A stretch of 48,194 nucleotides of DNA from a virus. Position numbers and translations under genes: made by a program. The notes below the pieces were generated by a model. It was not told the origin of the DNA, did no database searches, and saw nothing but the letters and a program-made list of their open reading frames with translations. This document shows, piece by piece, positions 1-41,392 of the stretch. The first letter of the stretch is position 1; every line of letters begins with the position of its first letter. Location of the stretch: positions 1 to 48,194 of the IMG/VR virus record IMGVR_UViG_3300021067_000002, one strand, 5' to 3'.

Positions 1-127
1 CTCCTCCAGGCGGCCCGCCAAAAACTCCACAATCTTCTTCATATGACGGCAATGTACCACAAGGGGGTAATGCTGTCCAAAAAGTTATCCAGGCGCTGAA
101 AGAAGCAAAGCCCTTAAACAAAGAGCA
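1..127. repeat. Terminal overlap, copy 1 (identical to 48068..48194)
   Basis: Read base by base: the first 127 nt equal the last 127 nt. The length matches a common maximum assembler k-mer, which indicates a circular or concatemeric template. Confidence 0.95.
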
Positions 128-7590: not shown

Positions 7591-7592
7591 TT

Positions 7593-9467: not shown

Positions 9468-9471
9468 CAAA

Positions 9472-9496
9472 AAACCCCCGAAGGGGTTTCTTGTTT
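9472..9496. terminator. Bidirectional intrinsic terminator between convergent genes
   Basis: Sequence aaacccc-cgaa-ggggttt gives a 7-bp stem. It is flanked by an A-run upstream and cttgttt downstream. Confidence 0.7.
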
Positions 9497-9812
9497 AGAA
9501 CGGTCCTTGGTTGACTTTGACCAGCACCGAGCACTGCGTAAACACGGTCCAGGGGTTTTTGCCCCATACATTGAGGTGAAACCAGTTGTCCCCTTTTGGC
9601 TTGACCACGGCCGAGCCGCTCGACGTAGCCACCTTACCCCGTACTCCGGTGAACTCCACCTTTGTTGCATTGGTGGTGGTCCACGTGATCGTAGACGTTT
9701 GTCCCCGATTGATGACTGACGGGGTAGCAGTCAGCGTACAGGTGGGCATCGCTGCGAACGCTACTGCCGGAACAAACAACCCGATAATTGAACCCGCTAG
9801 TACCTTCTTCAT
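9495..9812 (-). CDS. Small secreted Ig-like/beta-sandwich protein (moron)
   Basis: 105 aa with signal peptide MKKVLAGSIIGLFVPAVAFA. It is oriented opposite to the flanking + strand late genes and bracketed by a terminator. Confidence 0.65.
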   Translation of the reverse strand: MKKVLAGSIIGLFVPAVAFAAMPTCTLTATPSVINRGQTSTITWTTTNATKVEFTGVRGKVATSSGSAVVKPKGDNWFHLNVWGKNPWTVFTQCSVLVKVNQGPF

Positions 9813-9922
9813 AAGTAATGAAGTTAGCTATTAAAACAGCTTCCCACTGGTATCCCTGCCGTAAGGGTACCACGCCCCCGGACAGGGACACTGAGTTACC
9901 CACACCTTGGCTTGACACCAAA

Positions 9923-9945
9923 CGGGACAGTTATGGTGGTACAAT
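9923..9945 (+). promoter_or_regulatory. Promoter candidate: CGGGACAGTT box plus extended -10 TGGTACAAT
   Basis: Sequence is cgggacagttatggTGGTACAATtt. The same two blocks recur at 21763..21783. The ATG at 9961 lies 15 nt after the -10. Confidence 0.4.
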
Positions 9946-9960
9946 TTACCTGTAATTTAT

Positions 9961-11250
9961 ATGAACCCCACTGGCCTGGAGCCGATAAAACCAGACCGCC
10001 GAGACTATTCCGTAGTTCATACGTTTGGCGCGACCGTTGACCCCAAGGGCTTACCGGACAGCTTTTCCATCTACGACGGCCGCGAAGTCCCCAACCAAAA
10101 CCGAGAAGACACCCGCTTTACCCCTGCGGTGCGTCCACTACCCATGGGCTGCACCGGAGAGAGCCAAACCTTTTTAGCGGGTATTGCTGATGGAGCGCTC
10201 TACCGCCCTGATGATTTGTACGACCACACACCACCTGGCATTGATGGCCAAGGCCGAGGGATGCGTGAGAGTTTGAAGGCGACCAAGGAACGAGGGTTTG
10301 TCACACAGCCTGACAGCGAACCTGTGGAGAAGCGTAAGGGCTACTTCAACTGCTATGGCGCAGGCAAGATTGATGATTTTGATGCGACCCGCATAGCGCT
10401 CTGGCTTAACCAGGGAGAGAAGCGCGGCGTCACCGTGGGCACCTACTGGTATACCGAGTTTAATAATCCCAAACCCGACCACACCCTCCGCGTCCCGTCG
10501 TTTAACACGAACCTTGGCTCACTCCACAACTGGGTAGCTACTGGCTGGAAGCGCATCAAAGACGTAGACCACCTCGAAGTAATCCCCTGGATGGGAAGTG
10601 GCTACGGCAACAATGGCCGCGCCTACATGTCCCGTGCGATCTACAACGCACTCATGGCCCAGCCGTACACCGGAGCCTTTACCTTTACCAAGTACCAGGG
10701 CAACGACCCCATCCCGGTGGGCATCCGCGCCATCATCGACAACTTTGTCTACTGGTTTAACAATCTCATCGGCAATAAGCCCGCCGTCGCGGAGCCCAAG
10801 GAGCAGGACACAGCTCCACAAAAGCCGCTGGAGCCACTCCCTGAGAGCAATCGCGAGAAGCTCCACGAGATGGCGTTGCTCTATCTCGACCAGGACGCCT
10901 CGCCCTCTGACATTGCCGACGATGAAGTTGGTTGTGCCGAGAGTGTCTCGACGATCTTGCACGAGGTGTACCCCGACTTCCCCGTCAAAGTCTCCACCAT
11001 CCGCCTGAATGAGTTTTTGAAAGCAGACAAGCGGTTTAAAGCAACATTGGAGGCAAAGCCCGGCAACATCATCATCTCACCCACGGTAGGCAAGACCATC
11101 GGCCACTGCGGCATCTTTACCGAAGGCCAGCGCATCTTGAACAACAACAGCAAGAACGGGCTGTGGCAGAACACCTACTCGCTGGATAGTTGGGTCAAGT
11201 ACTTCCGCTACCAGAAAGGATTGCACTTGTACTTTTACGAGCCGCTCTAA
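9961..11250 (+). CDS. Endolysin candidate with two cysteine-peptidase-like domains: N-terminal papain/C1-like and C-terminal CHAP/NlpC-P60-like
   Basis: N-terminal motifs are VPNQN..GCTGESQTF, LHNWVATGW and WMGSGYGNNGRAYM. C-terminal motifs are VGCAESVS...GHCGIF. A holin-like ORF lies next to it. Confidence 0.55.
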   Translation: MNPTGLEPIKPDRRDYSVVHTFGATVDPKGLPDSFSIYDGREVPNQNREDTRFTPAVRPLPMGCTGESQTFLAGIADGALYRPDDLYDHTPPGIDGQGRGMRESLKATKERGFVTQPDSEPVEKRKGYFNCYGAGKIDDFDATRIALWLNQGEKRGVTVGTYWYTEFNNPKPDHTLRVPSFNTNLGSLHNWVATGWKRIKDVDHLEVIPWMGSGYGNNGRAYMSRAIYNALMAQPYTGAFTFTKYQGNDPIPVGIRAIIDNFVYWFNNLIGNKPAVAEPKEQDTAPQKPLEPLPESNREKLHEMALLYLDQDASPSDIADDEVGCAESVSTILHEVYPDFPVKVSTIRLNEFLKADKRFKATLEAKPGNIIISPTVGKTIGHCGIFTEGQRILNNNSKNGLWQNTYSLDSWVKYFRYQKGLHLYFYEPL

Positions 11251-17570: not shown

Positions 17571-18092
17571 ATGGAGATATGGAAGCCCGTTGCGGGCTAT
17601 GAGGGTCTGTACGAGGTTAGTAACCTTGGTCGCGTTAAGAGCTTTCACGGGCAGTACGGCGTCAAAGAACGCATCCTAAAACCGAGAACCCACCAAGGGT
17701 ACTTCGCCGTCAACTTAGCAAAAGACGGCACTGTTACCTGCAAATGGGTTGCGCGGTTGGTCGCTATTGCATTTGTCCCGAACCCAAACAACCTGCCGGT
17801 GGTCAACCACATCAACGGTGTCAAAACAGATAACCGTCCCGAAAATCTTGAGTGGGTGACGGTTGGCGACAACACGCGCCACGCGTTTAGAACCGGTCTT
17901 TTGAAAGGCGGGTACGGTGCAAAAATTAGTGCCGACACTGCCAGCCACATCAAGGCCCGGCTTGTTAATGGTGACCGACCAAGCGTCATTGCCAGAGAAA
18001 TGTCCCTACCAGACACACTGGTCTACGCTATCAGTTGCGGTCAGTCGTGGAGGAAGCTCGAACCGAGCATCCACCCCAAATCCCCGTGTTAA
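17571..18092 (+). CDS. HNH homing endonuclease (NUMOD4-like N-terminus plus HNH_3-like core)
   Basis: Motifs are WKPVAGYEGLYEVSNLGRVKS and VNHINGVKTDNRPENLEWVT..NTRHA. Confidence 0.8.
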   Translation: MEIWKPVAGYEGLYEVSNLGRVKSFHGQYGVKERILKPRTHQGYFAVNLAKDGTVTCKWVARLVAIAFVPNPNNLPVVNHINGVKTDNRPENLEWVTVGDNTRHAFRTGLLKGGYGAKISADTASHIKARLVNGDRPSVIAREMSLPDTLVYAISCGQSWRKLEPSIHPKSPC

Positions 18093-19477: not shown

Positions 19478-19756
19478 ATGACACACGAACTAATGAAAGA
19501 GCTTCAGGACGCCGGGTTTCCTGGCAACATCCCGGATGATGAAGCTGTTAAAAGTGACTTTCGTGACCCCACCCTCACCAACCTTTTAGAGGCGTGTGGG
19601 GAGAGGTTCAGTAGTCTGAATAAACTTCAAAGTGAGTGGTGTGCTCTCGCACGTTGCAAGTTAAATCCAGAGGAAGACTTCGACGAGGCGCACGGCCAGA
19701 CACCCGAGGAAGCCGTTGCCCGCTTGTGGCTCGCACTCAACCAGCCAAAATCTTAG
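19478..19756 (+). CDS. Conserved phage hypothetical protein (92 aa)
   Basis: Clean ORF. The pattern PTLTNLLEACGERF...TPEEAVARLWLALN is recalled from many prophages. It overlaps the int 3' end convergently by 20 nt. Confidence 0.55.
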   Translation: MTHELMKELQDAGFPGNIPDDEAVKSDFRDPTLTNLLEACGERFSSLNKLQSEWCALARCKLNPEEDFDEAHGQTPEEAVARLWLALNQPKS

Positions 19757-20756
19757 TTAGGTGCTGCTCCCATTTGAGCAACGCCTCACGCTTCTCCTCC
19801 ACAGGGTCATGAGTGTCATACGTCTCATCGAGCGGATCACGGGCATGATTTAAAATACGCCGCGCAATCCACGGCGGCACCCGTAGCGCCGCTAATCCAG
19901 ATCGCACGGTGCGCCTGCAATCTCTCAGTTGCCAATCCCTGACCCCCGACGCCTCATCCAACGCAATCTTGTTTCGGCTCCAATCAAAGATGGGGTAGTC
20001 CTGAATGAATGGCCGCGCCAGCGGACAAATCGGGAGCGTGTTTGCCCGATGATTTTTGGAGAACTCCTCGGGGATGACAAATGTATCTTGTGCCACTACC
20101 GCATGAACAAGTTCGGTGCGGCGCTGGCCGGTACAGAGAAGCCCTCGCACATAGTCCGCAAACTTGCCTGGCACAGCCCACAGAGCGCGTATTTCATCAT
20201 CAGTGAGGGTACGGGTGCGGCGCTTGGTTTTCGCCTTCTCCAAACCCATCGTAGGGTCGCGCTCGATGTAGTGGCGCTTGACCGCCCACCGAAAGAACAC
20301 CCGTGCGGCGACTAACAGGTGGTCACGCTCGCTGGGAAACTTGACCTTGTTTAACTGCCGCGCAAACTCGTGAGGATTGACATCGAGGAGCTGGCCGAAC
20401 CGCAACCGCTTTAACAGCCGCTCATACTCGACCACCGTTCCGCGTTTGCGGGATTTCGCCTTTTCCTGAATGAACAGCTCCACCCCTTGCAGATAGGTGA
20501 TGCTCTGGGGGCGAACTTTGCCCAGCGTAAACTCTGCCAACAATCGCTTGGCCTCGGTGCGAGCTTGCGAAAGGCTGATAGTTGGAAACCGACCAATGGT
20601 GATGTAGCGCCGGTCATTGCCGTAGATGACCACAAAAGATTTGGTGCCTGCTTGGGAGACGCGCACCCCAAACCCCGGCACCACGTCATCCCGATAGGTT
20701 TTCTGCCCCTTATCAGGGGCGGGGAGTGACCGTACCGTTGTATCCTCCAGCCTCAT
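19737..20756 (-). CDS. int: Tyrosine integrase, P4-like with a DUF4102-type arm-binding N-terminus
   Basis: N-terminal motif is LPAPDKGQKTYRDDVVPGFGVRVSQAGTKSFVVIY. Catalytic region shows TGQRRTEL, RDCRRT, LNHA and ..TYDTH. Confidence 0.9.
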   Translation of the reverse strand: MRLEDTTVRSLPAPDKGQKTYRDDVVPGFGVRVSQAGTKSFVVIYGNDRRYITIGRFPTISLSQARTEAKRLLAEFTLGKVRPQSITYLQGVELFIQEKAKSRKRGTVVEYERLLKRLRFGQLLDVNPHEFARQLNKVKFPSERDHLLVAARVFFRWAVKRHYIERDPTMGLEKAKTKRRTRTLTDDEIRALWAVPGKFADYVRGLLCTGQRRTELVHAVVAQDTFVIPEEFSKNHRANTLPICPLARPFIQDYPIFDWSRNKIALDEASGVRDWQLRDCRRTVRSGLAALRVPPWIARRILNHARDPLDETYDTHDPVEEKREALLKWEQHLTKILAG

Positions 20757-21187: not shown

Positions 21188-21460
21188 ATGGAGACAGATA
21201 TTTACCTGACACTAGACGAGTGTGCTGCTCGTTTTCGGGTAAAGCGCATCACCATTAAGCGGTGGATTGCGAAACGGGGTTTTCCCCGAGGAAAGATACC
21301 GGGTGAGGTGAAAGAAGTTACCTCCTCATCCAAGTTTGGCGAGGAGTACAAACGCCACCACAATGGCCGAGTGCTCTACCCAAAAGTCGAAGTTGACGAT
21401 TGGGACGCCAAATTGCCTCGGGAGCCGATCCCGGTCATCCCTGATCAGGATGACGAATAG
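21188..21460 (+). CDS. xis: Excisionase/AlpA-like HTH protein
   Basis: The motif LTLDECAARFRVKRITIKRWIAKRGFP resembles the MerR-type excisionase HTH. It lies next to int and attP. Confidence 0.6.
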   Translation: METDIYLTLDECAARFRVKRITIKRWIAKRGFPRGKIPGEVKEVTSSSKFGEEYKRHHNGRVLYPKVEVDDWDAKLPREPIPVIPDQDDE

Positions 21461-21471
21461 ACCGAACGGAG

Positions 21472-21506
21472 ACCCCGGCAGGCCAACCCTGACCGGGGTT
21501 TCTGCT
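21472..21506 (+). terminator. Intrinsic terminator after xis
   Basis: Stem accccggcagg / cctg(a)ccggggt is followed by tttctgctgt. Confidence 0.55.
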
Positions 21507-21601
21507 GTGTAACGTATCGTGCTACTGGTTACACATGCGGCTTATACGCGAAAACGCGATAAAGCCTTGTGTATCAACACTTCCCGCCACAACTGGCCCG
21601 T

Positions 21602-21744
21602 CGCTATTGCGCCGAGCTTTCTGGACCGAATGGTCTATATGCGCTTGAGCCGCACAGCGCCTCAAAGCCGCAACGACCATCCACGCTCGTGTCGGGCAGA
21701 TTTGCCACTACACGCGCGGGGGTCCAGAAAGCTCGGCGCTAGCG
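21602..21744. repeat. Perfect 19-bp inverted repeat (24 bp with one 2-nt bulge) closing a 93-nt insert that itself folds into two hairpins
   Basis: GCGCCGAGCTTTCTGGACC (21609-27) pairs with GGTCCAGAAAGCTCGGCGC (21721-39). cgcta (21602-06) pairs with tagcg (21740-44). Inner stems are 21630-35/21675-80, 21643-49/21661-68, 21688-92/21710-14 and 21695-98/21703-06. Confidence 0.7.
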
Positions 21745-21789: not shown

Positions 21790-22188
21790 ATGGTCAAATG
21801 CTCACACTGTAAGCAGATGTTCGATTTGGCGGACACAATTTGTTACAAACGCGGCCCCACAAACTCCTACTATTACTGCCGTATCTGCGCGGCCAAACTA
21901 TCGAACAACCGCGCCCGTTATGCCCACCGTCATCGGCCTGAAATACTAAGGCGTTCGACTGCACGCGCCAAAGCCAAATTTCCTGAAAAAAACAAGGCGC
22001 GCGACATCCTCAACAAAGCAATTCGCCACAATAAACTTTCACGCCCGGCAGTCTGTGAGATTGGCTGCACCACCCGTCGCATACACGCGCACCACGACGA
22101 CTACACTAAGCCCCTCGAAGTCCGCTGGCTGTGTACACTTCACCATGCTGACCTCCACAAAGGGCGACCACTTAGGCCTATTGTGTGA
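21790..22188 (+). CDS. HNH endonuclease with an N-terminal zinc ribbon
   Basis: Cysteine pattern is CSHC...CRIC. Core motif is IHAHHDDYTKPLEVRWLCTLHHADLH. Confidence 0.7.
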   Translation: MVKCSHCKQMFDLADTICYKRGPTNSYYYCRICAAKLSNNRARYAHRHRPEILRRSTARAKAKFPEKNKARDILNKAIRHNKLSRPAVCEIGCTTRRIHAHHDDYTKPLEVRWLCTLHHADLHKGRPLRPIV

Positions 22189-22221
22189 TAAAAGTGTAGG
22201 GGACAACGGAGGGGACAGCAC

Positions 22222-22413
22222 ATGTATCCAATGATGATGGGCGCGTTCGTTGGTGCGAGTTTGCTGCTGACATTTTTGGCGGGCTGGTCGTGGTTTATGC
22301 TTTACCACGAGAAAAGAATGAAACTCGACAAGACTGACAACCTGCACCTCGCACTTTTCTACACCGCGATTGCTCTCGCAGGATGGGCTGCGACTGTTTA
22401 TTTCTTGATATAA
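22222..22413 (+). CDS. Small membrane protein (63 aa, 2 TM)
   Basis: SD ggagggg lies upstream. Hydrophobic segments are GAFVGASLLLTFLAGWSWFML and LALFYTAIALAGWAATVYFLI. Confidence 0.55.
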   Translation: MYPMMMGAFVGASLLLTFLAGWSWFMLYHEKRMKLDKTDNLHLALFYTAIALAGWAATVYFLI

Positions 22414-22418
22414 TTAGG
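22409..22418 (+). promoter_or_regulatory. -10 TATAAT in the TATAATTAGG context
   Basis: Sequence is cttgaTATAATTAGGttgg. The same decamer occurs at 28084..28093. Confidence 0.35.
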
Positions 22419-22505
22419 TTGGACTGCTCATTTTGCGGTTGGCAGTCCCCGCGCAATCTTCGATAGGCACGAAGCGCTACGCGGCACATGGCCGCCAACC
22501 GCCCA

Positions 22506-23299
22506 TGAACTCCTTACACGTCGGCACCAAAGGTTTGCACGAGTGGCTCTCTACAAAACGAGAACCAAACTCTTTGATAATTGCCGATGACCCACAACCC
22601 TTTCTTACAAAACGGGTGCGCGTTTTTGACCCTGCAAAACATCACTTTAATCCGCTGACAAACATCACCCCTGAAGGGGCTACCGAGCTTGCCGACATCG
22701 TTTACCTCGCAGACCCCGGTGGTGAGAACACGCTGACGGTGCGGAATGGCAAACGTGCCCTAGCCAAGTTGCTGGTTAACACCACAGCCCTCGACACACT
22801 CGACGGCAACAAAACAGACCCGTACCAAGCTGAAGCCATGGCCGCAGTTGACGCTTTGCTGTTTTACCCCCTGCTGAAGAAAGTCCTGTGCAGTGGCAAA
22901 CCGTTTAACTTCAGCGGTACAGTCGTGGCAAAGATTGACCGCGCCAAACTAGGGGACAAGCAGTCGCTCGCCCTCGCCCTCATGCTGATTTCACAGTTTA
23001 AAGGACACGTTGTTGTCCTTGATGGGGGCTTTTATTTACGTCCTTTACATGTGTCCTTGATACGGCAAAATAGGCTGACCTGTGGTGTGCAGTACCTAGC
23101 AGAGCTCGAAAAAGACATGCGCCAAGCCGTGCTCCTCATCAAAGACAAAACCGGCGACGGGTGCACCTACGAGGACGCGGTAGTGTTAGCGAACTACGCG
23201 GGCTTGCGTCCTGACCCACTACGAGACGACAGCGACTACAACAAGTTTGTGCGAGAGCGAATGGGAGCGGGGGATGCAACTCAATCAGTGGCCGTTTAA
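22506..23299 (+). CDS. Soluble T4CP/TraD-like paralogue lacking Walker A (probably a degenerate ATPase)
   Basis: Motifs are VRVFDPAKHHFNPL and GHVVVLDGGFYL (a Walker-B-like strand with DG instead of DE). No GxxxxGK[ST] motif is present. The start is ambiguous: ATG at 22506 or TTG at 22433. Confidence 0.45.
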
Positions 23300-25424
23300 T
23301 CGCGGTTGGTGGCCGCGCACACAACTCCAACTGTTCATCTATTCGTTTTTTTATTTTGCCTTCTTTCTCGGTGTTTTGTGGCTTGTGTTTTCGTGGTACT
23401 TCCGGCTCCCCGGCTACGACATTGTTGACTACGGCTGCATAGCGATCATCCTCACCACCATTGTCGCCGGTGTCGCGGGTATGTCCATCGAGGAGCGAAA
23501 CTTTGACCTTGTAAAAACAATTGGTACGCCAGAGCACAGAACCAGACGACAGCAAAAAGCCTACAAGCAACTCATCGCCCACCCGCGCCGGTACTTTTTC
23601 GGCGTGTACGTTTTTGCATTGGGCGCACTGTATTTGACCTATTACGGTTACACGGTGGGCTTCCCCACGAGACAAACCCCAACATTTACCCTCATCGAAG
23701 TTGCTTTGCTCCTCACTATGACTGGTGTTTTTCTTGTTGTCTCCCACCACCAACATCGTCTTTACAACGAAGCCTACGAGCTTGCGTACCCGGCCGCCCC
23801 TGCGCCACCCCCCGCTCCACCACCTGACCTCTTGCGCCTTGCCGCCGAGCACGACGCCGCGCTCCCCCCAGAGAGCGTGAGGCCACTGTTACTGACCCTG
23901 CCCCAACCCGCTATTGTTGCGTACCTGAAACATTTGCCTCGCAGTGAGGATGGCCCATTCCGCCAAGCGTTTTACAACGCGGCGAACCTCAAACAATTTT
24001 CTATGGAGTTTATGCCCCATCTCAAGGACACGCCCGCCTACGAAGCCTATTACCAAAACGTGTTGCGGATGACCCCCAAAAAATCGTCCGTATTTATGTG
24101 GCCGCAAAATTACAAAGGCACCAACGCCGAAATCTACCGAAACTATTTTGCCAACAGCCCACTGCGGCCGCTCTTTGAAGTCACGACGCCCTTTAGAGTG
24201 TTTGATGACCACCGCTTTTCCCATAGCTGGGTTATGGGCAAGCAACGCAGTGGCAAAACCACCCTGCTTAGCGCACAGATTTGGGACGACTTACAGCGCA
24301 TGGGTCAAGGGGAGTGCTCCATCTTTGTAATGGACAGCCAAGACAAAGAAGCGTTTGTCAGGAGCCTCGTAAAGCTGAAGCAGTTTGCACCAGGCGGGAA
24401 GTGGCACGACAAGCTGGTCTACATCGAGCCTGACCTCTCTTACACGCCTGCCATCAATCCGTTGGACATTGGCGATGTAACCAGACTAAGCGAGAACGAC
24501 CGCTACGAGACCATCCAAACCGCAAGTGTAGTGTTAAACTCGCTGTTCTCATCGCTCCTCGACTTTCCCCTCACGGGCAAGCAAGGGATACTCTTTGGCT
24601 ATCTCGTGTCGGCGGCCGTCACCGTCCCCAAAGCCACCCTAACCACCCTCATCGACCTCTTAAAACCCGGTGGCTACGAGCAATATCGCAACAACATTGC
24701 CCACGCCCCGCCGCAGACTGCGCAGTGGTTTAAAGACCACATGCGGGTGAAGCAAAAGGGCGAGACCACAAGCCAGTTTAAGGAGACGGCCGAGGAACTG
24801 CGGGTGCGTCTCGAAGGGCTGATGAACGATGACCTGTTTGCGCGGATGCTGAACCCCACCACCACCGACGAAACAACCAAGGTTGACCTCCTCGACCTGT
24901 TAAGTGAGCCGAGGCTGGTAGTGATAAATACGATGCAGGGCAGGTTGGCTGAAAAAAAGGTAGAGGCGTTTGGCCGCTTCTTTATCTCCCAGCTCCTTCT
25001 TACGATGCAAAAGCGCCCCGAGCGTGCCCTCAAATGCTTTGCCTACATCGACGAGGCCACCGACTACCTGAAAAATGACGAAAAAGTTGCAACCCTTATC
25101 TTTAAAGGCCGCAAGCAAAACATGGCACTAACGATTGCCCACCATGTGGAGAGCGACCTGCACCCCCGAGTACACGACGCGCTCCAAAAAGCCGAAGTCA
25201 AATACACCCCTGCGAAGGACTATCACTGGAATGTGGATATCAACGATGGCGAGCTGAAAGCCACGGTGCTGCCCCAGCATGTGGACTTCTCCAAGATGCC
25301 CCTCATGAGCGACAGGGAGTGGCGTGCAGTGTTAACCGAGCAGAGGGCCAAGTACTGCGTGCAGTATCGCAAGACCCCCCCTGCATCCCCAGCCCCGCCA
25401 CGGGAGTTTGGCAAGGGATGGTAG
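23247..25424 (+). CDS. Membrane-anchored FtsK/HerA-superfamily DNA translocase, type IV coupling protein (TraD/VirD4)-like
   Basis: About 4 N-terminal hydrophobic helices, then the Pro-rich linker PAAPAPPPAPPP. Walker A is MGKQRSGKTT, followed by INPLD, Walker B-like CFAYIDEATD, and ALTIAHH. The start may instead be ATG at 23274. Confidence 0.6.
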   Translation: MCESEWERGMQLNQWPFNRGWWPRTQLQLFIYSFFYFAFFLGVLWLVFSWYFRLPGYDIVDYGCIAIILTTIVAGVAGMSIEERNFDLVKTIGTPEHRTRRQQKAYKQLIAHPRRYFFGVYVFALGALYLTYYGYTVGFPTRQTPTFTLIEVALLLTMTGVFLVVSHHQHRLYNEAYELAYPAAPAPPPAPPPDLLRLAAEHDAALPPESVRPLLLTLPQPAIVAYLKHLPRSEDGPFRQAFYNAANLKQFSMEFMPHLKDTPAYEAYYQNVLRMTPKKSSVFMWPQNYKGTNAEIYRNYFANSPLRPLFEVTTPFRVFDDHRFSHSWVMGKQRSGKTTLLSAQIWDDLQRMGQGECSIFVMDSQDKEAFVRSLVKLKQFAPGGKWHDKLVYIEPDLSYTPAINPLDIGDVTRLSENDRYETIQTASVVLNSLFSSLLDFPLTGKQGILFGYLVSAAVTVPKATLTTLIDLLKPGGYEQYRNNIAHAPPQTAQWFKDHMRVKQKGETTSQFKETAEELRVRLEGLMNDDLFARMLNPTTTDETTKVDLLDLLSEPRLVVINTMQGRLAEKKVEAFGRFFISQLLLTMQKRPERALKCFAYIDEATDYLKNDEKVATLIFKGRKQNMALTIAHHVESDLHPRVHDALQKAEVKYTPAKDYHWNVDINDGELKATVLPQHVDFSKMPLMSDREWRAVLTEQRAKYCVQYRKTPPASPAPPREFGKGW

Positions 25425-25427
25425 AAT
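25419..25427 (+). promoter_or_regulatory. Extended -10 TGGTAGAAT, 9 nt before the GTG at 25437
   Basis: Sequence is gaTGGTAGAATacggacataGTG. It overlaps the stop codon of the upstream gene. Confidence 0.35.
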
Positions 25428-25436
25428 ACGGACATA

Positions 25437-26411
25437 GTGGACTTAGAACCGCTAGTCACGGCCCCATACACTCCGTCTATGCGAACGCGCATCGACGACT
25501 TAAATCCCCCGCCGCCCCCCGGTGACTTAGACCTTACGCCGAAACGTGCGGCCGTCTTAGACCTGTTTACGCGGTATGAAATCTTACCCGCCAACTACAT
25601 CAACGTTGCGGCTGACGTAGGCTGGAAGCCTATATGCGACCTGAAAAAGTATCACTACATCGGCGTCCCCGACATGGAAGGGGCACGGCCGCTTGACGCT
25701 CGTAACCGCGTCCGCGCCCTCGCGTTGCTCCCGCGAGGCGAGAGCCTCTTAGGCCGCAAGGGGTATCACTCAGCAGACAACAGCTTTAAGCACAAGCTCC
25801 TTATCTCCCTTGCTAAGTTTTCGTTTGACCGTGCCACGGCTGAAATCCCCGGCCTACGCAAGTTAGAGCTGGCGGACATCCTGTCACATCCCCAGTGCCC
25901 GCCCGAAACAGCGGCCGAGGAGCACCCCAACAACATCCCTATAGGTGGGTATGTCATCAAGCCCGACGCAGAATTGTTTGGCTACGAGCTAAACGGCCGA
26001 TACATTTTCATCCACGGCTTTGAGGCTGACCGGGGGACAGAACGGGGGACACCGAACAGCGAGTTTAAAAAGAAGTCCATCGAAAGCATGGTGCGTAACT
26101 ACGGTACCTACATTCGAGAGAGTATCTACTACCACCGCTACGGCTTTGTGAACGTGCTGTGTCCCTTCATCTGCGACACCCCGCAAGCCCTCGCCCGCAT
26201 CATGCACATAGTGCACCGTGATATCGAACCCGAGCTGTGGGAGAACTTCCCCGGTATGGTGCTATCGACCGACCCACGAAACTACCCGCCGCCCACGGCC
26301 CACTTGGTAACAAACGACTGGCAGTTGGCGGACGGCTCGCCCTTCAACATCCTAGGAGTACTCGATGCAAACCGACCCCAAGACACTGGCTCGACTGAAA
26401 GAGCTGCTTGA
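25437..26411 (+). CDS. Replication-relaxation (Replic_Relax)-like protein
   Basis: N-terminal wHTH-like LTPKRAAVLDLFTRYEILPANYI. The core IKPDAELFGYELNGRYIFIHGFEADRGTE matches the recalled PDa...lEvDrgTE signature. Confidence 0.5.
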   Translation: MDLEPLVTAPYTPSMRTRIDDLNPPPPPGDLDLTPKRAAVLDLFTRYEILPANYINVAADVGWKPICDLKKYHYIGVPDMEGARPLDARNRVRALALLPRGESLLGRKGYHSADNSFKHKLLISLAKFSFDRATAEIPGLRKLELADILSHPQCPPETAAEEHPNNIPIGGYVIKPDAELFGYELNGRYIFIHGFEADRGTERGTPNSEFKKKSIESMVRNYGTYIRESIYYHRYGFVNVLCPFICDTPQALARIMHIVHRDIEPELWENFPGMVLSTDPRNYPPPTAHLVTNDWQLADGSPFNILGVLDANRPQDTGSTERAA

Positions 26412-26532
26412 GCTGAAAGAAAAGACCGATGCTGAAATCGACAGCATCGTAACGGGAGTAGAGAAGCCTAAGAGAACGTGGACGAGACGCAGCAACGGCG
26501 CAGAACCACTCCCCGAGCACACTGTGGTATGA
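26365..26532 (+). CDS. Small coiled-coil protein (55 aa)
   Basis: SD aggag lies 6 nt upstream. Translated by hand as MQTDPKTLARLKELLELKEKTDAEIDSIVTG... It overlaps the 3' end of the previous gene. Confidence 0.4.
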   Translation: MQTDPKTLARLKELLELKEKTDAEIDSIVTGVEKPKRTWTRRSNGAEPLPEHTVV

Positions 26533-26554: not shown

Positions 26555-26590
26555 AAAGGCCCAGATCACTCTGGGCCTTTTGCTTTTCTA
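26555..26590. terminator. Strong bidirectional intrinsic terminator
   Basis: Sequence is aaaggcccaga-tcac-tctgggccttt, an 11-bp perfect stem. It is followed by tgcttttc and preceded by an A-run. Confidence 0.85.
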
Positions 26591-26764
26591 TTCGTCACGT
26601 CTGGGGAACAACACCAGGCGGCCATCAGTCGGGAGAGCTTGCAGCTCGACCGAGATGCCATCCTTGGCGACATTCCAACCAGCACCAACAGTGGTGTAGT
26701 GGTTCTTGTCGTCGCTACCTTTGCGCGACACGCAGACGTTATAGTCGGGCTTTTTGCCAGCCAT
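26588..26764 (-). CDS. DUF736-like small protein (58 aa)
   Basis: SD aaaggag lies upstream. The sequence MAGKKPDYNVCVSRKG..HYTTVGAGWNVAKDGISVELQALP resembles DUF736 (PDYRI...IGAAW...). The ORF-track frame is trimmed to this Met. Confidence 0.4.
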   Translation of the reverse strand: MAGKKPDYNVCVSRKGSDDKNHYTTVGAGWNVAKDGISVELQALPTDGRLVLFPRRDE

Positions 26765-26907
26765 GAGTTCACTCCTTTCTGGCTCCCGCTGTTGATTGAG
26801 ATGCGGGAGGGGAGCGGACACCATTCACCGTTATAACCATGGATTACGGCTCTAGTGCTGGCACCCCCCGTCCACACCCCAATCTCTGCCACCAGCATAA
26901 CATAGGA

Positions 26908-28112: not shown

Positions 28113-28841
28113 ATGGAGACTGTCATGTCCCTGTGCTTACACGCGGGGGCAAACCCCGTGACGTACGACGACCTGCGCCAAGTCGCAGTGCCCGAGGCTA
28201 CGGATACTCACATCCCCGTGCCGCACCACGAGATTGTGGAGCTGCTCCGCTACACACTCGGCTTTTATGGACACGAAATCGTCCAAGAAGATCACGCCAT
28301 CATGCCCGATGGACAACGCTACTTTGGGCTGATGACCCTGCGCTCCCCGTATGGAGATTACGGCGACGTTGTCGGTTTGCGTAACTCACATGACAAGTCG
28401 TTCCCCATCGGCATCGCGTTTGGATCGCGCGTGTTTGTGTGCGATAACACGGCCTTCATTGGCGAGCACGTCATCAAGCGCAAGCACACCGTGAAAGCGA
28501 AACGCGAGCTGCCGGGCCTCGTCACTGAAATCGTGGCCCCCTTGCAGGCCCAGCGCCTCGCCCAGAACCAGAAGCTCGTCGGCTACCAGAACATGGTCCT
28601 TAGTGACGTTCTTGCTGACCACGCAGTGATGGAGATGTACCGCCGAGAGGTCATTGGGGTACAGGCCATCGCCCATGTGCTTAAGGCATGGGAAGAGCCG
28701 CCGCACGACTGGGGCTCCAAAACCTGCTGGCGGTTGTTTAACGCTGCTACCTTTGCCCTCGCTGGCAAGGTCGCAGAACGGCCGCAACTCACGAAGAACT
28801 TGCACACCATCATTGACGGTGTTTGCGAGCGAGTGCACTAG
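28113..28841 (+). CDS. DUF932-like (phage/plasmid-like) protein
   Basis: Motifs are GLRNSHDKSFPIGIAFGSRVFVCDNTAF and the overall pattern recalled from DUF932 of ICEs and plasmids. Confidence 0.55.
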   Translation: METVMSLCLHAGANPVTYDDLRQVAVPEATDTHIPVPHHEIVELLRYTLGFYGHEIVQEDHAIMPDGQRYFGLMTLRSPYGDYGDVVGLRNSHDKSFPIGIAFGSRVFVCDNTAFIGEHVIKRKHTVKAKRELPGLVTEIVAPLQAQRLAQNQKLVGYQNMVLSDVLADHAVMEMYRREVIGVQAIAHVLKAWEEPPHDWGSKTCWRLFNAATFALAGKVAERPQLTKNLHTIIDGVCERVH

Positions 28842-30991: not shown

Positions 30992-31435
30992 ATGGCTCGA
31001 CCAACTAAACTTACACCCGAGCTAATCAAGAAAGCCAAGAGCTATCTGGCTACCTGTAAGGACGACATCATTGAAACTGACAAAGGTGCACTGGCCTATG
31101 TCGATGTGGAGCTACCATCTCAGGTAGGTTTAGCCCGACACTTAGGCATCAACAAAGACACGATCACTGAGTGGTGCAAACTTGAAGACGAACTTGCAAA
31201 AGAGTTTTCCGTAATCGTCAAGGATATTCACGACGAACAAGAGCGGCGATTGATAAACAAGTCGCTTGGTGGGCTCTACACGCCAAAGATAGCGGGCATG
31301 ATGCTGGGTAAGCATGGCTATGTTGAGAAGCAGGAGGTGACTGGCAACGATGGAGGAGCGATCCAGATTGATATAAGCGGCCCTCTTTCCAAAGTGTATG
31401 GACCACCTACTACAGACTTGCCTACAGACAGCTAG
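30992..31435 (+). CDS. terS: Terminase small subunit
   Basis: Motifs are MARPTKLTPELIKKAKSYL and LPSQVGLARHLGINKDTITEWCK (HTH). It lies directly upstream of terL. Confidence 0.7.
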   Translation: MARPTKLTPELIKKAKSYLATCKDDIIETDKGALAYVDVELPSQVGLARHLGINKDTITEWCKLEDELAKEFSVIVKDIHDEQERRLINKSLGGLYTPKIAGMMLGKHGYVEKQEVTGNDGGAIQIDISGPLSKVYGPPTTDLPTDS

Positions 31436-32879
31436 AGACGCTGGTGTACCGAGAGACCAGGCAGAGCGACTAGTATCTCACGGTTATATTCCGTACCCCT
31501 GGCAGTGGCGCTTTCACGCAGCCGCGCGAGAAGCAGACGAGCAAGGTGGCCCGGTAGACATTGGGCTAGGCGGCGCACGAGGCCCCGGTAAGTCTCACGC
31601 CGTACTCTCTCAAGCGGCGCTCGACGACTGCCAGCGCATCCAGAACCTCAAAGGTTTGTTCCTTCGCCAAACCGGTGTAGCGGCGAAAGAGAGTTTCGAC
31701 GACCTTGTAACCAAGGTTGTCGCTGGCCGTGTGCCATATGAGCGAGCAAATAATACCCTTCGTTTTCCAAACACTAACTCGCGCATTATTCTCGGTGGAT
31801 TTAAGGACGAGAACGATATCGATAAGTACATCGGTATCGAATACGACTTCATCATTATTGAAGAGCTAAATCAGCTTACTGAAGAAAAATATCAAAAGCT
31901 TCGCGGCTCATTGCGTACCAGTAAACCCAACTGGCGACCGCGCATGTATACCTCATTTAACCCCGGCGGGTTAGGCCACGGTTTTGTTAAGCAGCGTTAC
32001 GTCATTCCCAAGCGCATGATGGAGGAGCGTGAGACCCGCTTCATTCCCTCGACTTATAAACAAAATCCCAACCTCAACACTGAATACATTGAATACCTAG
32101 AGAGCCTGACGGGTGATTTGGGCAAGGCATGGCGTGAAGGCGACTTTGACCTCTTTGCTGGCCAATACTTCAGTGAGTGGCGATACGACATCCATGTGCG
32201 TGAGCCCTTTGCTATACCAGATGATTGGAGACGCTTTTGCGCCCTGGACTACGGCTACAACGCGCCCAGTGCGTTGGGCTGGTTCGCGATCGACCCGACC
32301 GGACAGTTGTACCTGTACCGCGAGCTGTACCAGAACGAACTGACCTACACGCAGTTGGCTGAAGCCTATGCGTCCATGACCGGGGTGCATGAGAACATCG
32401 AATACTTGGTTGCTGACCCAGCATTTTGGGCCAAGAAGGGGGAACGAGATGACGCCTTAAGCGGTGCGGAGGTGTTTGAGCGGCGGGTGCGAGAGCTGAC
32501 GTTAAACCTCACCACCAAGAAACACCGCTGTCCCTTACTCCAGCGGGGTATCAACGACCGCGTCACCGGCTGGCGCGAGGTGCGTGAATATCTGCGCCCC
32601 TACCAGTTTGAAGAGGAGCTGACTGCCAAGCTCCAGGTGTTTAGTACCTGCACCGAGTTTATCCGCACGTTCCCGAGCTTAATCCACGACGAGCACAATC
32701 CCGAGGATGTTGATAGCGACGGGGAGGACCACGCGGGAGACATGCTACGATATGCAGTAATGAGTAGGCCGAAGCCAAGCAAGACGGCGGATGAACGGGC
32801 AGAGTATCACTTTAACAAGCGCATGAAAGAGAAGGCGAAGAAGCGAGAACGAGGACCGCTGTTTGTAACCAACCGATGA
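31398..32879 (+). CDS. terL: Terminase large subunit
   Basis: Walker A is GGARGPGKSH and Walker B is YDFIIIEE. The C-terminal nuclease region reads CALDYGYNAPSA...DHAGDMLRY. Confidence 0.9.
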   Translation: MDHLLQTCLQTARDAGVPRDQAERLVSHGYIPYPWQWRFHAAAREADEQGGPVDIGLGGARGPGKSHAVLSQAALDDCQRIQNLKGLFLRQTGVAAKESFDDLVTKVVAGRVPYERANNTLRFPNTNSRIILGGFKDENDIDKYIGIEYDFIIIEELNQLTEEKYQKLRGSLRTSKPNWRPRMYTSFNPGGLGHGFVKQRYVIPKRMMEERETRFIPSTYKQNPNLNTEYIEYLESLTGDLGKAWREGDFDLFAGQYFSEWRYDIHVREPFAIPDDWRRFCALDYGYNAPSALGWFAIDPTGQLYLYRELYQNELTYTQLAEAYASMTGVHENIEYLVADPAFWAKKGERDDALSGAEVFERRVRELTLNLTTKKHRCPLLQRGINDRVTGWREVREYLRPYQFEEELTAKLQVFSTCTEFIRTFPSLIHDEHNPEDVDSDGEDHAGDMLRYAVMSRPKPSKTADERAEYHFNKRMKEKAKKRERGPLFVTNR

Positions 32880-34868: not shown

Positions 34869-35402
34869 ATGTGCAGAAATTGCGAACAACCTATTCCACA
34901 AACTGCTAGCCACTGGCGTACTGCGAAATATTGCAGGCGCACTTGCTGGAAGTCTCATTGGAAAGGCGTAAACACACATATGTGGGGGGTAAAAGGGAAG
35001 CTGCACCCAACCTTCGGCCGTAAGCACACGGATGAAGCGAAGGCGAAAATCGCAGCTAGCATGAAAATCCAAGATCGTTCAGGTTCTAGGTCGCCTGTTT
35101 GGATTGCTGACCGTTCAAAGTTGGCAAAGGCAGACGAGCATCGCAACGATACTTCGCATCATGAATGGTCGAAGAACGTTAAGAACCGCGACGGCTGGAC
35201 ATGCAAAATTGACAACCAAGACTGCGAAGGGAGATTAGAAGCTCATCACATCCTTTCGTACAAAGAATATCCAGAGCTTCGTTATCAGATTACCAACGGC
35301 ATCACCTTATGCCACGCACACCACCCGTTCGGGCGTGCGGAAGAGAAGCGGCTTGCGCCTGAGTTTCAGGCAATGGTGTCAGCATCAAAGGCACTTAATT
35401 GA
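34869..35402 (+). CDS. HNH homing endonuclease with a NUMOD3-like motif
   Basis: Motifs are GKLHPTFGRKHTDEAKAKIAASM and WTCKI..CEGRLEAHHILSYKEYPELRYQITNGITLCHAHH. It is a paralogue of 40841..41392. Confidence 0.75.
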   Translation: MCRNCEQPIPQTASHWRTAKYCRRTCWKSHWKGVNTHMWGVKGKLHPTFGRKHTDEAKAKIAASMKIQDRSGSRSPVWIADRSKLAKADEHRNDTSHHEWSKNVKNRDGWTCKIDNQDCEGRLEAHHILSYKEYPELRYQITNGITLCHAHHPFGRAEEKRLAPEFQAMVSASKALN

Positions 35403-36376
35403 TTACTCGATCAGATTTCGCCAGTCTCACTGACGATTTGCAGGGCATCTTCAACGAGCAAGCTGCAAACTCCGTCGCTGAGATGGTGGGTCCCAAAATC
35501 TTCGAGGTGAAGGATACGGATCGCCGCACCTTCGACCACCTCATCCTCCACGGCGTGGCAGGTATCCAAGAGGTTGGCGATGGCCAGGACTTCCCGTCTG
35601 TTACCTCGGTAGAGGGTGATAGCATCACCTACACGCAGCGCCACTTCGCAGCCATCGTGCCCGTCACGAAGGACATGCGTAAGTTTGACCTGCATGACCA
35701 GATAGAAACCACGGTTAAAAGCATCACTCAGGACGCCTTCCACAAAGTGGATCAGTCCTATGCTGATGTGCTGACCAACGGCTGGAGCACCAGCTACACC
35801 GACGTATACGGCCGCTCGATCGGCGCAACGGGTCCTGACGGCCTTGCGCTCTTCTCGTCTGTACACTCGAACAACATCAACAGCTCGACGTTCTCGAACT
35901 TGCTGCTTGACGACGCAGGTAACGCTGACCCGGTGCTCTCTCGCGCAGCAATCGTCGAGAGCCGCGCCCGCGCCATGCGCTATTCGGACCCGAATGGTTT
36001 GGTCCGCCCCATCAACCTCAACACGTTGGTTGTGTCGGCCGCCAATGAGGACCTTGCAGAGCGCATTGTGTTCTCGTCTGGCGTCCAGGGCACCCCGAAC
36101 GTGGACAACAACCCGCTCAAGGGTAAGGTCAGCCAGATTATCGTCTGGCCGCGCCTCGATGTCCGCACCGGTGGCACTGACACCGACCAGTACTGGTTCA
36201 TGTGCGACAGCTCGAAGGTAGGCGAGAGCCTCAAGTCGAAGTTTGCAGAGCGCCCATCGCTCGACGCGCCTGAAGAGGTGTATGAGAACAAGACCTGGGA
36301 GTACTCGATCGACTACTACTACACCACTGGCTTGGGCTTCCCTGCCTACATCCGTGGCTCACGCGGCACTGTTTAA
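35399..36376 (+). CDS. Major capsid protein candidate
   Basis: 325 aa at the expected position. Its sequence resembles gpT/HK97-fold capsid proteins. The TTG start overlaps the HNH stop. Confidence 0.6.
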   Translation: MITRSDFASLTDDLQGIFNEQAANSVAEMVGPKIFEVKDTDRRTFDHLILHGVAGIQEVGDGQDFPSVTSVEGDSITYTQRHFAAIVPVTKDMRKFDLHDQIETTVKSITQDAFHKVDQSYADVLTNGWSTSYTDVYGRSIGATGPDGLALFSSVHSNNINSSTFSNLLLDDAGNADPVLSRAAIVESRARAMRYSDPNGLVRPINLNTLVVSAANEDLAERIVFSSGVQGTPNVDNNPLKGKVSQIIVWPRLDVRTGGTDTDQYWFMCDSSKVGESLKSKFAERPSLDAPEEVYENKTWEYSIDYYYTTGLGFPAYIRGSRGTV

Positions 36377-40844: not shown

Positions 40845-41392
40845 GACAGCAGACTGGCAAAACTCTGGAGTGCCTTCAGTGTAAGAAGTCTTTTTACGCT
40901 CCACCCCACCGCCTCAAGGCAGGTGCGGAGTTTTGTTCAGTGCGTTGTTCCGCTCTCTCCCATTGGCAGCGTCCGGCATATCGCACGAAAATGAAACATG
41001 CTCATAGTGGTAATACTGCGTCTCCCGAGACGCGCCACAAAATGAGCTTGGCACAAAAGGCACACATCGCTCGCTCCGGTGCAAACCGCGGTTTTGTTGG
41101 CATAGCCAGTCAAGACCACTGGAATTGGAAAGGTGGAATAACAACTCTAACTGAAAAGCTCCGCAAATCATCCCGGTATACTCAATGGCGGACCAGCGTC
41201 TTCGCACGTGACGACTATGTATGCCAAGCCTGTGGCGAACGTGGCGGTAGGCTTCACGCCCACCATGACCTACCCTTTTCTCAATTTCCTGATCTACGTT
41301 TTGAAGTATTGAATGGAATGACGCTTTGCGTTCCCTGCCACAAGAAAACCCCGACTTTTGGAGGTGCGATAACCAACAGCGTCTATGCGTAA
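40841..41392 (+). CDS. HNH homing endonuclease with a NUMOD3-like motif
   Basis: Motifs are SPETRHKMSLAQK and WRTSVFARDDYVCQACGERGGRLHAHHDLPFSQFPDLRFEVLNGMTLCVPCH. Confidence 0.75.
   Translation: MRQQTGKTLECLQCKKSFYAPPHRLKAGAEFCSVRCSALSHWQRPAYRTKMKHAHSGNTASPETRHKMSLAQKAHIARSGANRGFVGIASQDHWNWKGGITTLTEKLRKSSRYTQWRTSVFARDDYVCQACGERGGRLHAHHDLPFSQFPDLRFEVLNGMTLCVPCHKKTPTFGGAITNSVYA

Follow-up and report, generated by a model that had tools for sequence, protein, structure and literature searches.

A conserved gene trio encoding a coupling protein-like ATPase, a predicted Walker-A-less paralogue and a Replic_Relax-type protein in temperate phages of Alphaproteobacteria

Gene transfer by phages and gene transfer by conjugative elements are usually regarded as distinct processes. 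The mobilisable plasmid CloDF13, one of the rare MOB_C1 group, encodes a coupling protein of its own and no type IV secretion system (T4SS); this protein, MobB (653 aa, with a transmembrane domain at residues 1-184 containing 3 transmembrane (TM) helices), is required for coupling to a T4SS of foreign origin and also, together with MobC, for relaxation (PMC7431656). In tailed phages, Pathria et al. described in 2012 a 'DNA translocation operon' in Bacillus phage 0305phi8-36, encoding a MobC-like relaxase, a VirD4/TraG-like ATPase and membrane proteins; partial versions occur in SPO1, GBSV1, BV1, Gamma, Cherry, Fah and Wbeta, and in the temperate members they lie beside the integration genes (PMC3357382). 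Later Bacillus phage papers annotate the same relaxase-ATPase pair and read it as plasmid-type replication or segregation genes, and the puzzle has stood since 2012. Here we describe a related arrangement in IMG/VR virus record IMGVR_UViG_3300021067_000002, whose 48,194 nt are the whole stretch of DNA that was analysed (the window). A relaxase-ATPase pair in tailed phages is therefore already published; three things are new. Among temperate phages of Alphaproteobacteria, one lineage joins the pair, in a conserved trio, with a pseudo-type IV coupling protein (T4CP) of an unnamed family; its ATPase carries a TM domain itself, like MobB; and a long inverted repeat is conserved. We tentatively read the trio as a MOB_C-type DNA-processing and translocation module for mobilisation, possibly with replication.

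An earlier note on this DNA, made from its letters alone, had placed a six-product operon at 21790-26532. All six open reading frames (ORFs) are present there on the + strand, together with the motifs quoted for them: FDPAKHHFNPL and VVVLDGG in a 288-aa ORF; PAAPAPPPAPPP, GKQRSGKTT, INPLD and FAYIDEATD in a 725-aa ORF; and IKPDAELF and FEADRGTE in a 324-aa ORF. Family alignments and database gene calls shift the starts of these three ORFs inwards, to 264, 716 and 310 aa, and the resulting proteins are identical to database entries (P0019, P0001 and P0013, respectively). Of the five junctions between the six genes, the first two are gaps of 33 and 91 nt, the third is an overlap of 26 nt, the fourth a gap of 54 nt and the fifth an overlap of 47 nt, and a single co-directional transcription unit is plausible, since the genes are tightly packed or overlapping and a terminator-like hairpin stands at the cluster end. 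The ORFs and their common direction are thus real, but the first two genes, for an HNH endonuclease and a peptide with two TM helices, fall outside the conserved module, both being absent at this position in relatives (by synteny and by tblastn in related loci). The conserved core is the three genes given here with the repeat upstream and the hairpin downstream:

21609..21739, no strand assigned: long perfect inverted repeat, 131 bp, with arms of 19 nt each (21609-21627 and 21721-21739) and a 93-nt spacer
22505..23299, + strand: pseudo-ATPase 'p264', 264 aa, with a predicted T4CP/VirB4-like nucleotide-binding fold lacking Walker A
23274..25424, + strand: T4CP-like ATPase, 716 aa, with 3-4 predicted N-terminal TM helices, a Pro-rich linker, Walker A, NPL motif, helical insertion and Walker B
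25479..26411, + strand: Replic_Relax (MOB_C relaxase-type, PD-(D/E)XK) protein, 310 aa
26550..26585, + strand: intrinsic-terminator-like hairpin closing the cluster, 16-bp stem and T-run

Direct scans of the three core proteins were uninformative. Pfam gave no match; NCBIfam and PADLOC gave only a TraD/EccC P-loop match on the ATPase (TIGR03743, E=0.032, over 37 residues only) and a weak mad8 match; phmmer and profile searches of PDB sequences gave noise or marginal HerA matches only. Deeper evidence, from orthologues and folds, was therefore needed to assign them.

For the ATPase, the AlphaFold2 (AF2) model has a pLDDT >90 over residues 210-710, and its Foldseek matches in the PDB include HerA (4.5e-10), TrwB (2.6e-9, TM-score 0.55 when scaled to TrwB), Cagβ, defence-system HerA and DndH/DptH, with a probability of 1.00 for TrwB, Cagβ and HerA and with alignments to TrwB that cover about 440 columns. 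FtsK chains were not among the best 50 PDB matches, and FtsK reached E=0.35 in the profile search of PDB sequences; as modelled, the fold is nearer to T4CP/HerA than to FtsK/TraB. The model shows no HAS beta-barrel of the HerA type, residues 195-325 before Walker A being mostly helical. Between the NPL motif and Walker B it has 7 helices (416-535), set between strands 399-401 and 557-561. TrwB carries an all-alpha domain at the equivalent place between Walker A and Walker B; HerA likewise has a helical insertion, and the correspondence with the TrwB domain is one of position, not of helices superposed one by one. Hydropathy places 3 strong and 1 weaker hydrophobic segments before residue 160, followed by the Pro-rich linker, and at least one TM segment precedes Walker A in 56 of 77 family members.

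Along the sequence lie Walker A (G336, K337, T338) and the NPL motif (N404) and then, after a helical insertion that spans roughly residues 410-545, Walker B (D602, E603) and R622. In the alignment of the 77 members G336, K337, D602, E603, R577, R590 and R622 are invariant, and T338, N404 (in INPLD), D363 and N561 nearly so. The family is very large: at a cut-off of E<=1e-3 a profile built from 12 homologues matched 20,025 cluster representatives, of which 4,985 passed E<=1e-30. When 65 members were scanned singly all matches were weak: DUF87 (HerA central) in 28, TrwB_AAD_bind in 21, FtsK_SpoIIIE (PF01580) in 11, with a best value of 1.3e-4 and the window protein unmatched, T4SS-DNA_transf in 7 and TraG-D_C in 6. 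Plasmid homologues at 23-29% identity are annotated as 'type IV secretory system conjugative DNA transfer family protein' or VirD4, and the best viral fold matches are proteins of Bacillus phage JL and phage G (gp156), the entry A7KUX5 and, from an uncultured siphovirus, a 'Conjugal transfer protein'. The membrane anchor appears, from the gene arrangements, to be a detachable module, because in two Xanthobacteraceae metagenome-assembled genomes (L008, 5208-7015, and L019) the ATPase is split into a 93-aa gene at the position of the N-terminal membrane region and a gene for a 508-aa soluble ATPase.

The protein encoded upstream, of 264 aa, has an AF2 model with a pLDDT of 95.4, and all its Foldseek matches in the PDB at E<=1e-2 are type IV secretion ATPases (Cagβ, 3.8e-5; VirB4, 7.7e-5, with a query TM-score of up to 0.61; also TrwK and TrwB), with query TM-scores of 0.5-0.6. 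More than 265 homologues at 45-70% identity are named only 'hypothetical protein', and the family has no counterpart in Pfam. Its consensus starts MNxLxxGxxD, holds neither a GK[ST] P-loop nor a conserved P-loop lysine, and keeps an Asp at a Walker-B-like position (VPDFGFY). The predicted fold supports a Walker-A-less, T4CP-like paralogue of the ATPase; paralogy rests here on fold and not on sequence, because the hhalign comparison of the two families is colinear but not significant (probability 4.6%). The gene also occurs outside the trio, in viral contigs and in genome loci (L050, L052-L055, L058, L059, L062, L064, L066, L068, L069 and L075; L015, L020 and L023-L028), several of the genome copies being fragmentary; in such places it often stands alone on its own strand amid reverse-strand genes.

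The third protein, of 310 aa, gave no direct Pfam match at E<=0.1, and membership of the Replic_Relax (MOB_C) family is supported by transitivity. PF13814 matches 5 of 9 aligned sequences (the window protein and eight orthologues; best 3.6e-9), precomputed PF13814 matches are found in the neighbours of ATPase homologues at L005, L006 and L007, and the family hidden Markov model (HMM) matches the PGAP 'replication-relaxation family protein' of a Sulfitobacter plasmid at 1e-34. Replic_Relax corresponds to the relaxase class MOB_C (PMC5357655). The family is of the PD-(D/E)XK kind and is named partly for CloDF13 MobC, the 'relaxation' reference being the MobB/MobC paper (PMC3424549). Three acidic residues, D177, E196 and E202 (numbering of the 324-aa ORF), are invariant in the alignment. 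This pattern fits the DEE metal-binding motif described for MOB_C relaxases (PMC6736028), as an agreement of motifs and not a residue-by-residue alignment to TraX or MobC.

The trio is preceded by a sequence element that lies between the excisionase (xis) gene and the HNH gene, outside the coordinates of the earlier note. Folded as a single strand, the 131-bp inverted repeat of the window forms a three-way junction (-82.3 kcal/mol, z = -9.1). When the 900 nt preceding the 264-aa gene were searched in 24 trio loci, the longest perfect inverted repeat measured 14.8 nt on average, as against means of 8.5 nt in coding and 8.1 nt in downstream-of-module controls; the arms reach >=11 nt in 21 of the 24 and >=14 nt in 15. 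Across loci the arms measure 11-21 nt and the spacers 23-131 nt (examples are L001 8745-8830, L003 8484-8612, L013 9265-9400, L051 1634-1765 and L074 9620-9708), and every element tested folds far better than its shuffles (z -3 to -12). The arms share a CGACC-containing outer core, about CCACGACC(C)AATG, which in the window reads GCGCCGAGC..., while the inner arm sequence varies by locus and its complementarity stays perfect. A MAFFT alignment of the elements is poor, and conservation was judged per locus by arm detection and folding. Where the 264-aa gene occurs alone the repeat is rare (3 of 19 loci). We regard it as a candidate cis site for the module, whether an origin of transfer (oriT), an origin of replication (ori) or an operator complex. 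A phage attachment site (attP) is unlikely, as the element lies 1-2 kb inside integrated copies, and so is an invertible promoter, the spacers of 23-131 nt being short for inversion and no invertase being conserved nearby. Between the hairpin that terminates xis (21469-21502) and the long repeat there is also an operator-like palindrome, TGTGTAAC-N14-GTTACACA, at 21506-21535.

The trio belongs to a gene order that recurs in contigs from many samples: integrase, (AlpA/xis), the 264-aa gene, the ATPase, Replic_Relax, an ORF of about 50 aa, a small reverse-strand gene and a CHC2 primase-like gene, frequently followed by ArdC-like, methyltransferase and DUF932 genes. The order of the trio is found in about 12 of 34 genome loci, all of them from Alphaproteobacteria (Sphingomonas, Bradyrhizobium, Hyphomicrobium, Bauldia, Xanthobacteraceae, Pseudolabrys and Parerythrobacter), with Bradyrhizobium sp. 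AUGA SZCCT0431 and Parerythrobacter lacustris RS5-5 as cultured hosts, and in 18 of the 30 IMG/VR viral contigs (35-51 kb) that bear the 264-aa gene. At one integrated copy, a terminase of the GpA type is encoded 10 kb downstream.

The ATPase-Replic_Relax pair also exists without the 264-aa gene. It is found on a small integrase-bounded island with no recognisable phage genes (L005), on a 136-kb Sulfitobacter plasmid whose repA/repB replicon lies some 77 kb away, and on pRS11DPr5 (L077, NZ_AP019788.1), a 35-kb circular plasmid of the gammaproteobacterial methanotroph Methylomagnum ishizawai, which in addition carries two Rep genes, MipZ, a CHC2 zinc-finger gene and a SprT-like gene. Because separate Rep/Par systems are present, the pair is not the primary replicon on these plasmids; and because pRS11DPr5 combines the ATPase, Replic_Relax, CHC2 and SprT-like genes, the gene set travels together outside phages. 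On pRS11DPr5 the T4CP-like gene, unlisted in the annotation, adjoins a transposase, and nested inverted repeats lie at 4058-4158, upstream of the Replic_Relax gene. In 50,697 phage records, tblastn found no match to the 264-aa protein and a single, weak match to the ATPase (26% identity), in Microcystis phage Mwe-JY31 (PP438423.1, L011). This homologue is at 7341-10285 of a 22-kb record that has a ParA-like gene; an 18-nt AT-rich inverted repeat lies about 110 nt upstream of it, and the 299-aa gene downstream is unmatched by the Replic_Relax family HMM.

Most of what the earlier note had proposed for these proteins stands. A membrane-anchored ATPase of the T4CP/HerA/FtsK superfamily is borne out by the fold (nearest TrwB, Cagβ and HerA), a Walker-A-less T4CP/VirB4-like domain in the protein before it by that protein's predicted fold, and the Replic_Relax likeness of the 324-aa ORF by its orthologues; no T4SS genes turned up among the window ORFs scanned, as it had said. 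Three findings that it had named as counting against it did not appear, namely a place for the 725-aa protein in a routine phage family, a lack of Replic_Relax similarity, and a cassette widespread in strictly virulent phages. Its view that such a module is not typical of Caudoviricetes was too strong, given the operon of MobC-like relaxase and VirD4-like ATPase in Bacillus phages (PMC3357382) and the lineage-wide presence of the trio in alphaproteobacterial prophages. Its analogy with the single translocases of the actinomycete TraB type is the weaker comparison, the MobB/MobC arrangement of CloDF13 fitting best.

The element that carries the trio is a tailed temperate phage, as its genes for terminase subunits (TerS and TerL), capsid protein, SU10-type portal and adaptor, ERF and integrase indicate; tail-fibre-like proteins and an excisionase-like helix-turn-helix (HTH) protein are encoded too. 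The first and last 127 nt of the window (1-127 and 48068-48194) are identical, so it is a complete circular phage assembly of 48,067 unique bp and not a fragment of an integrated prophage. Rfam and tRNA scans of the window gave zero matches. The hosts of related loci are diderm Alphaproteobacteria. The genes around the trio, and the landmarks of the phage genome, are these:

19737-20756, - strand: integrase (Pfam Arm-DNA-bind_3; PHROG 1), farther upstream than the excisionase gene
21188..21460, + strand: excisionase/AlpA-like HTH gene preceding the module (Pfam HTH_17, 3.3e-6; PHROG 66 'excisionase'; TIGR01764)
21790..22188, + strand: HNH-type endonuclease gene (PHROG 2340 'endonuclease', 1.3e-19, only)
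22222..22413, + strand: 63-aa peptide, two TM helices predicted from hydropathy (residues 4-22 and 45-63)
26365..26532, + strand: 55-aa ORF overlapping the end of the Replic_Relax gene, a small ORF conserved at this position
26588..26824, - strand: small gene between the module and the primase-like gene, syntenic in many loci at 32-71% identity
26945..27601, + strand: CHC2 zinc-finger (DnaG-type) primase-like protein, 218 aa (Zn_ribbon_DnaG, 2.2e-5; TIGR01391, 1.3e-7)
30992-31435: TerS
31398-32879: TerL
35399-36376: capsid protein
17571-18092, 21790-22188, 34869-35402 and 40841-41392: HNH/NUMOD-type genes

The product of the HNH gene has no Pfam match, and calling the gene 'leaderless', as had been done, has as its sole basis a -10 element resembling TGnTACAAT and ending 6 nt upstream of the ATG. 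The genome has at least four genes of the HNH/NUMOD, homing-endonuclease-like type, dispersed along its length and in part lying between structural genes. Given this scatter and the absence of both genes from the syntenic position in relatives, the HNH gene and the gene for the 63-aa peptide look like inserts, the former probably a free-standing one and not a component of the module. On the other side of the trio, genes for 50-55 aa follow the Replic_Relax gene in L006, L007 and L009, and tblastn of the 55-aa ORF found L016 (59%) and L057 (43%). The small reverse-strand gene had no family match in the scans. The primase-like gene is syntenic with the module in L003, L007-L009 and many uncultivated virus genomes (UViGs), and occurs on the Methylomagnum plasmid as well. 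Downstream of it lies the gene for the DUF932 protein (28113-28841), which among the early genes is the most strongly conserved across the lineage; many loci keep it at 52-80% identity.

The analysis shows how the products of the trio fold and to which families they are related, and that both their gene order and the inverted repeat are conserved; beyond this we infer that the three would interact, that a nick would be made at a cis site, and that DNA might pass between cells. The Replic_Relax protein would bind and nick the circular, excised phage DNA at a cis site, for which 21609-21739 is the best candidate; the T4CP-like ATPase, probably as a hexamer, would aid nicking and engage the nicked DNA at the inner membrane; the Walker-A-less paralogue would be a non-catalytic accessory or regulatory partner; and the phage genome would thereby become mobilisable by the T4SS of a co-resident conjugative plasmid or integrative and conjugative element (ICE). 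The same nick could prime rolling-circle replication of the excised element. Proteins of the ICE relaxase type drive autonomous rolling-circle replication (PMC5714925), so mobilisation and replication need not exclude each other.

We hold this mobilisation reading as possible, somewhat short of probable. It draws on (i) the fold of the ATPase, its N-terminal TM helices, its helical insertion and the T4CP matches of its family; (ii) the fold of the 264-aa protein, which matches T4SS ATPases only, the Replic_Relax membership seen through orthologues, with invariant D/E/E residues that agree with the MOB_C motif, and the parallel with MobB of CloDF13; (iii) the presence of the pair on plasmids with separate replicons and in the non-phage island L005; (iv) the primase-like, ArdC-like and methyltransferase genes downstream, as in conjugative leading regions; and (v) the conserved inverted repeat as candidate cis site. 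With respect to (iv), the primase-like and ArdC-like genes would suit single-strand entry, yet they are also ordinary phage early genes.

Several observations pull the other way. Deletion of the analogous operon in 0305phi8-36 gave no laboratory phenotype (PMC3357382). The window ATPase itself has no significant match to a T4CP model in Pfam or NCBIfam (PF02534, PF10412, PF12696, TIGR03743); by Foldseek E-value it is about equally near to HerA and TrwB; 21 of the 77 family members lack a predicted TM segment; and against the MobB ORF of CloDF13 (PLSDB NC_002119, frameshifted) hhalign gave a probability of 32%, from Walker A to NPL, and BLASTP no match. The 264-aa gene is without the ATPase and Replic_Relax genes in 12 of the 30 UViGs, and since it is found alone there and in many genome loci it can function, or persist, without the other two. 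The inverted repeat was not found near the ATPase-Replic_Relax pair in L005, L006 and L010; this absence, with its rarity beside solo 264-aa genes, makes it a mark of the trio-bearing phage lineage. Finally, the stable, lineage-wide retention of the trio at 27-50% identity looks more like a core than an accessory function, and the module might itself be the replicon, because the scans of the genome recognised neither another initiator nor a helicase.

These last points lead to the strongest rival, in which the module would serve replication or maintenance only: the nickase would start rolling-circle or nick-primed replication at the inverted repeat, the ATPase and its inactive paralogue would act as loader, motor or membrane tether, the CHC2 primase-like protein would prime the other strand, and no DNA would leave the cell. 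We consider it a serious candidate, if on the whole a doubtful one. No polymerase was recognised in the 48-kb genome either, though with many small ORFs unannotated an initiator could be hidden among them; the trio holds an int/xis-proximal early position beside the primase-like gene in every member of the lineage, and its retention argues for a core role. The rolling-circle replication driven by ICE relaxases (PMC5714925) and the reading given to the pair in the Bacillus phage papers point the same way. However, plasmids that carry the pair have Rep/Par systems elsewhere, a membrane-anchored motor of the T4CP type is without a known role in replication, and the analogous Bacillus phage operon is dispensable for lytic growth (PMC3357382).

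A role in conflict seems decidedly improbable. Here the ATPase-nuclease pair and its decoy paralogue would exclude or degrade the incoming DNA of competing phages or conjugative elements, much as HerA-nuclease defence systems do, or, in a variant, the inactive T4CP-like protein could act as a poison for rival plasmids' coupling proteins. Foldseek does match the ATPase to HerA of SIR2-HerA and related defence complexes and to DndH/DptH, its best, marginal, matches in the profile search of PDB sequences are defence HerA, PADLOC gives a weak mad8 match (3.5e-8), and the solo 264-aa gene occurs in many phages, as an inhibitor might. But PADLOC found no match at the system level and left the nuclease and the 264-aa protein unmatched, the ATPase model has no N-terminal barrel of the HerA type, the partner is a MOB_C-family protein and not a known defence nuclease, and fixed synteny with vertical, lineage-wide retention is unlike variable defence islands.

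Export without a T4SS, in which the membrane ATPase would by itself drive nicked or double-stranded phage DNA from the cell or into an adjacent one, as has been proposed for Streptomyces TraB and for the 'transjugation' of Thermus TdtA, is highly unlikely; it corresponds to the capsid-independent spread of the earlier note, with no helper involved. Among the phage ORFs scanned there were no T4SS genes, the ATPase is equipped with a membrane anchor, a Thermus HerA/FtsK-like donor ATPase is reported to act without a T4SS (PMC5365140), and Pathria et al. speculated on propagation by translocation (PMC3357382), but the hosts are diderm with no outer-membrane component evident, FtsK is not among the best 50 PDB matches of a fold nearer to T4CP/HerA, and the pairing with a MOB_C relaxase points to single-strand, T4SS-coupled processing.

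If the mobilisation reading is taken to its end, these phages would have two transfer routes, their virions and a second one in which nicking at the inverted repeat and their own coupling protein deliver the genome to a helper T4SS. We think this rather unlikely; were it true, the prophage would spread by conjugation to cells without the phage receptor, as a phage and an integrative mobilisable element combined, and the dead T4CP paralogue would tune transfer or block rival plasmids. The persistence of a module of coupling protein and relaxase suggests either that some phage genomes can be handled like mobilisable plasmids or that a relaxosome has been reused for replication. The lineage offers a compact conserved trio, an unnamed pseudo-ATPase family of more than 265 members and a candidate cis site. 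Should conjugative mobilisation be shown, the predicted host range of such prophages would be wider than receptor specificity implies, and relaxase-bearing 'prophages' would be reclassified in surveys of the mobilome.

How, then, does the trio compare with the systems already described? With the HerA-nuclease pairs (HerA-NurA, SIR2-HerA and DUF4297-HerA) it shares an ATPase of the FtsK/HerA superfamily encoded beside a nuclease, with strong Foldseek matches; the phage ATPase differs in being membrane-anchored and in having a model without a HAS-barrel-like N-terminal domain, and its partner is a MOB_C-family protein in a fixed syntenic position, with no PADLOC system matched. A second parallel is plasmid pAD1, where the MOB_C relaxase TraX, with its DEE motif and N-terminal winged HTH, works with the TraG-like TraW. 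The oriT of pAD1 has inverted repeats, and TraX recognises a set of five direct repeats located 70-120 bp from nic, as against only a 2-copy direct repeat in the phage. At the MOB_C oriT (oriT2) TraX nicks within a large inverted repeat of roughly 140 bp, which the 131-bp element of the phage resembles. Unlike the phage, pAD1 is a plasmid of Gram-positive bacteria that brings a mating apparatus of its own and is self-transmissible.

A similar scenario occurs in the Bacillus phages, which also place a MobC-like relaxase gene beside a VirD4/TraG-like ATPase gene in Caudoviricetes, near integration genes in the temperate members, and whose representatives JL and G (gp156) are among the closest viral fold matches of our ATPase. 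In spite of these similarities there are differences: their hosts are Firmicutes, the ATPase of 0305phi8-36 is without TM helices and uses separate membrane proteins, and neither a pseudo-ATPase paralogue nor a long inverted repeat has been reported for them. With CloDF13, the present phage shares (i) an ATPase with a long N-terminal TM region (about 160-190 aa with 3-4 predicted helices, against residues 1-184 and 3 helices in MobB), (ii) the location of its gene next to one for a Replic_Relax/MOB_C, PD-(D/E)XK relaxase-type protein, and (iii) the lack of a T4SS of its own. The two part ways in that the carrier is a tailed temperate phage and not a small plasmid, that an extra Walker-A-less T4CP-like paralogue is encoded, and that the oriT of the phage is a candidate. 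Taken together, these likenesses and divergences make MobB/MobC of CloDF13 what appears to be the best match, and hence the closest known system, to the alphaproteobacterial phage trio.

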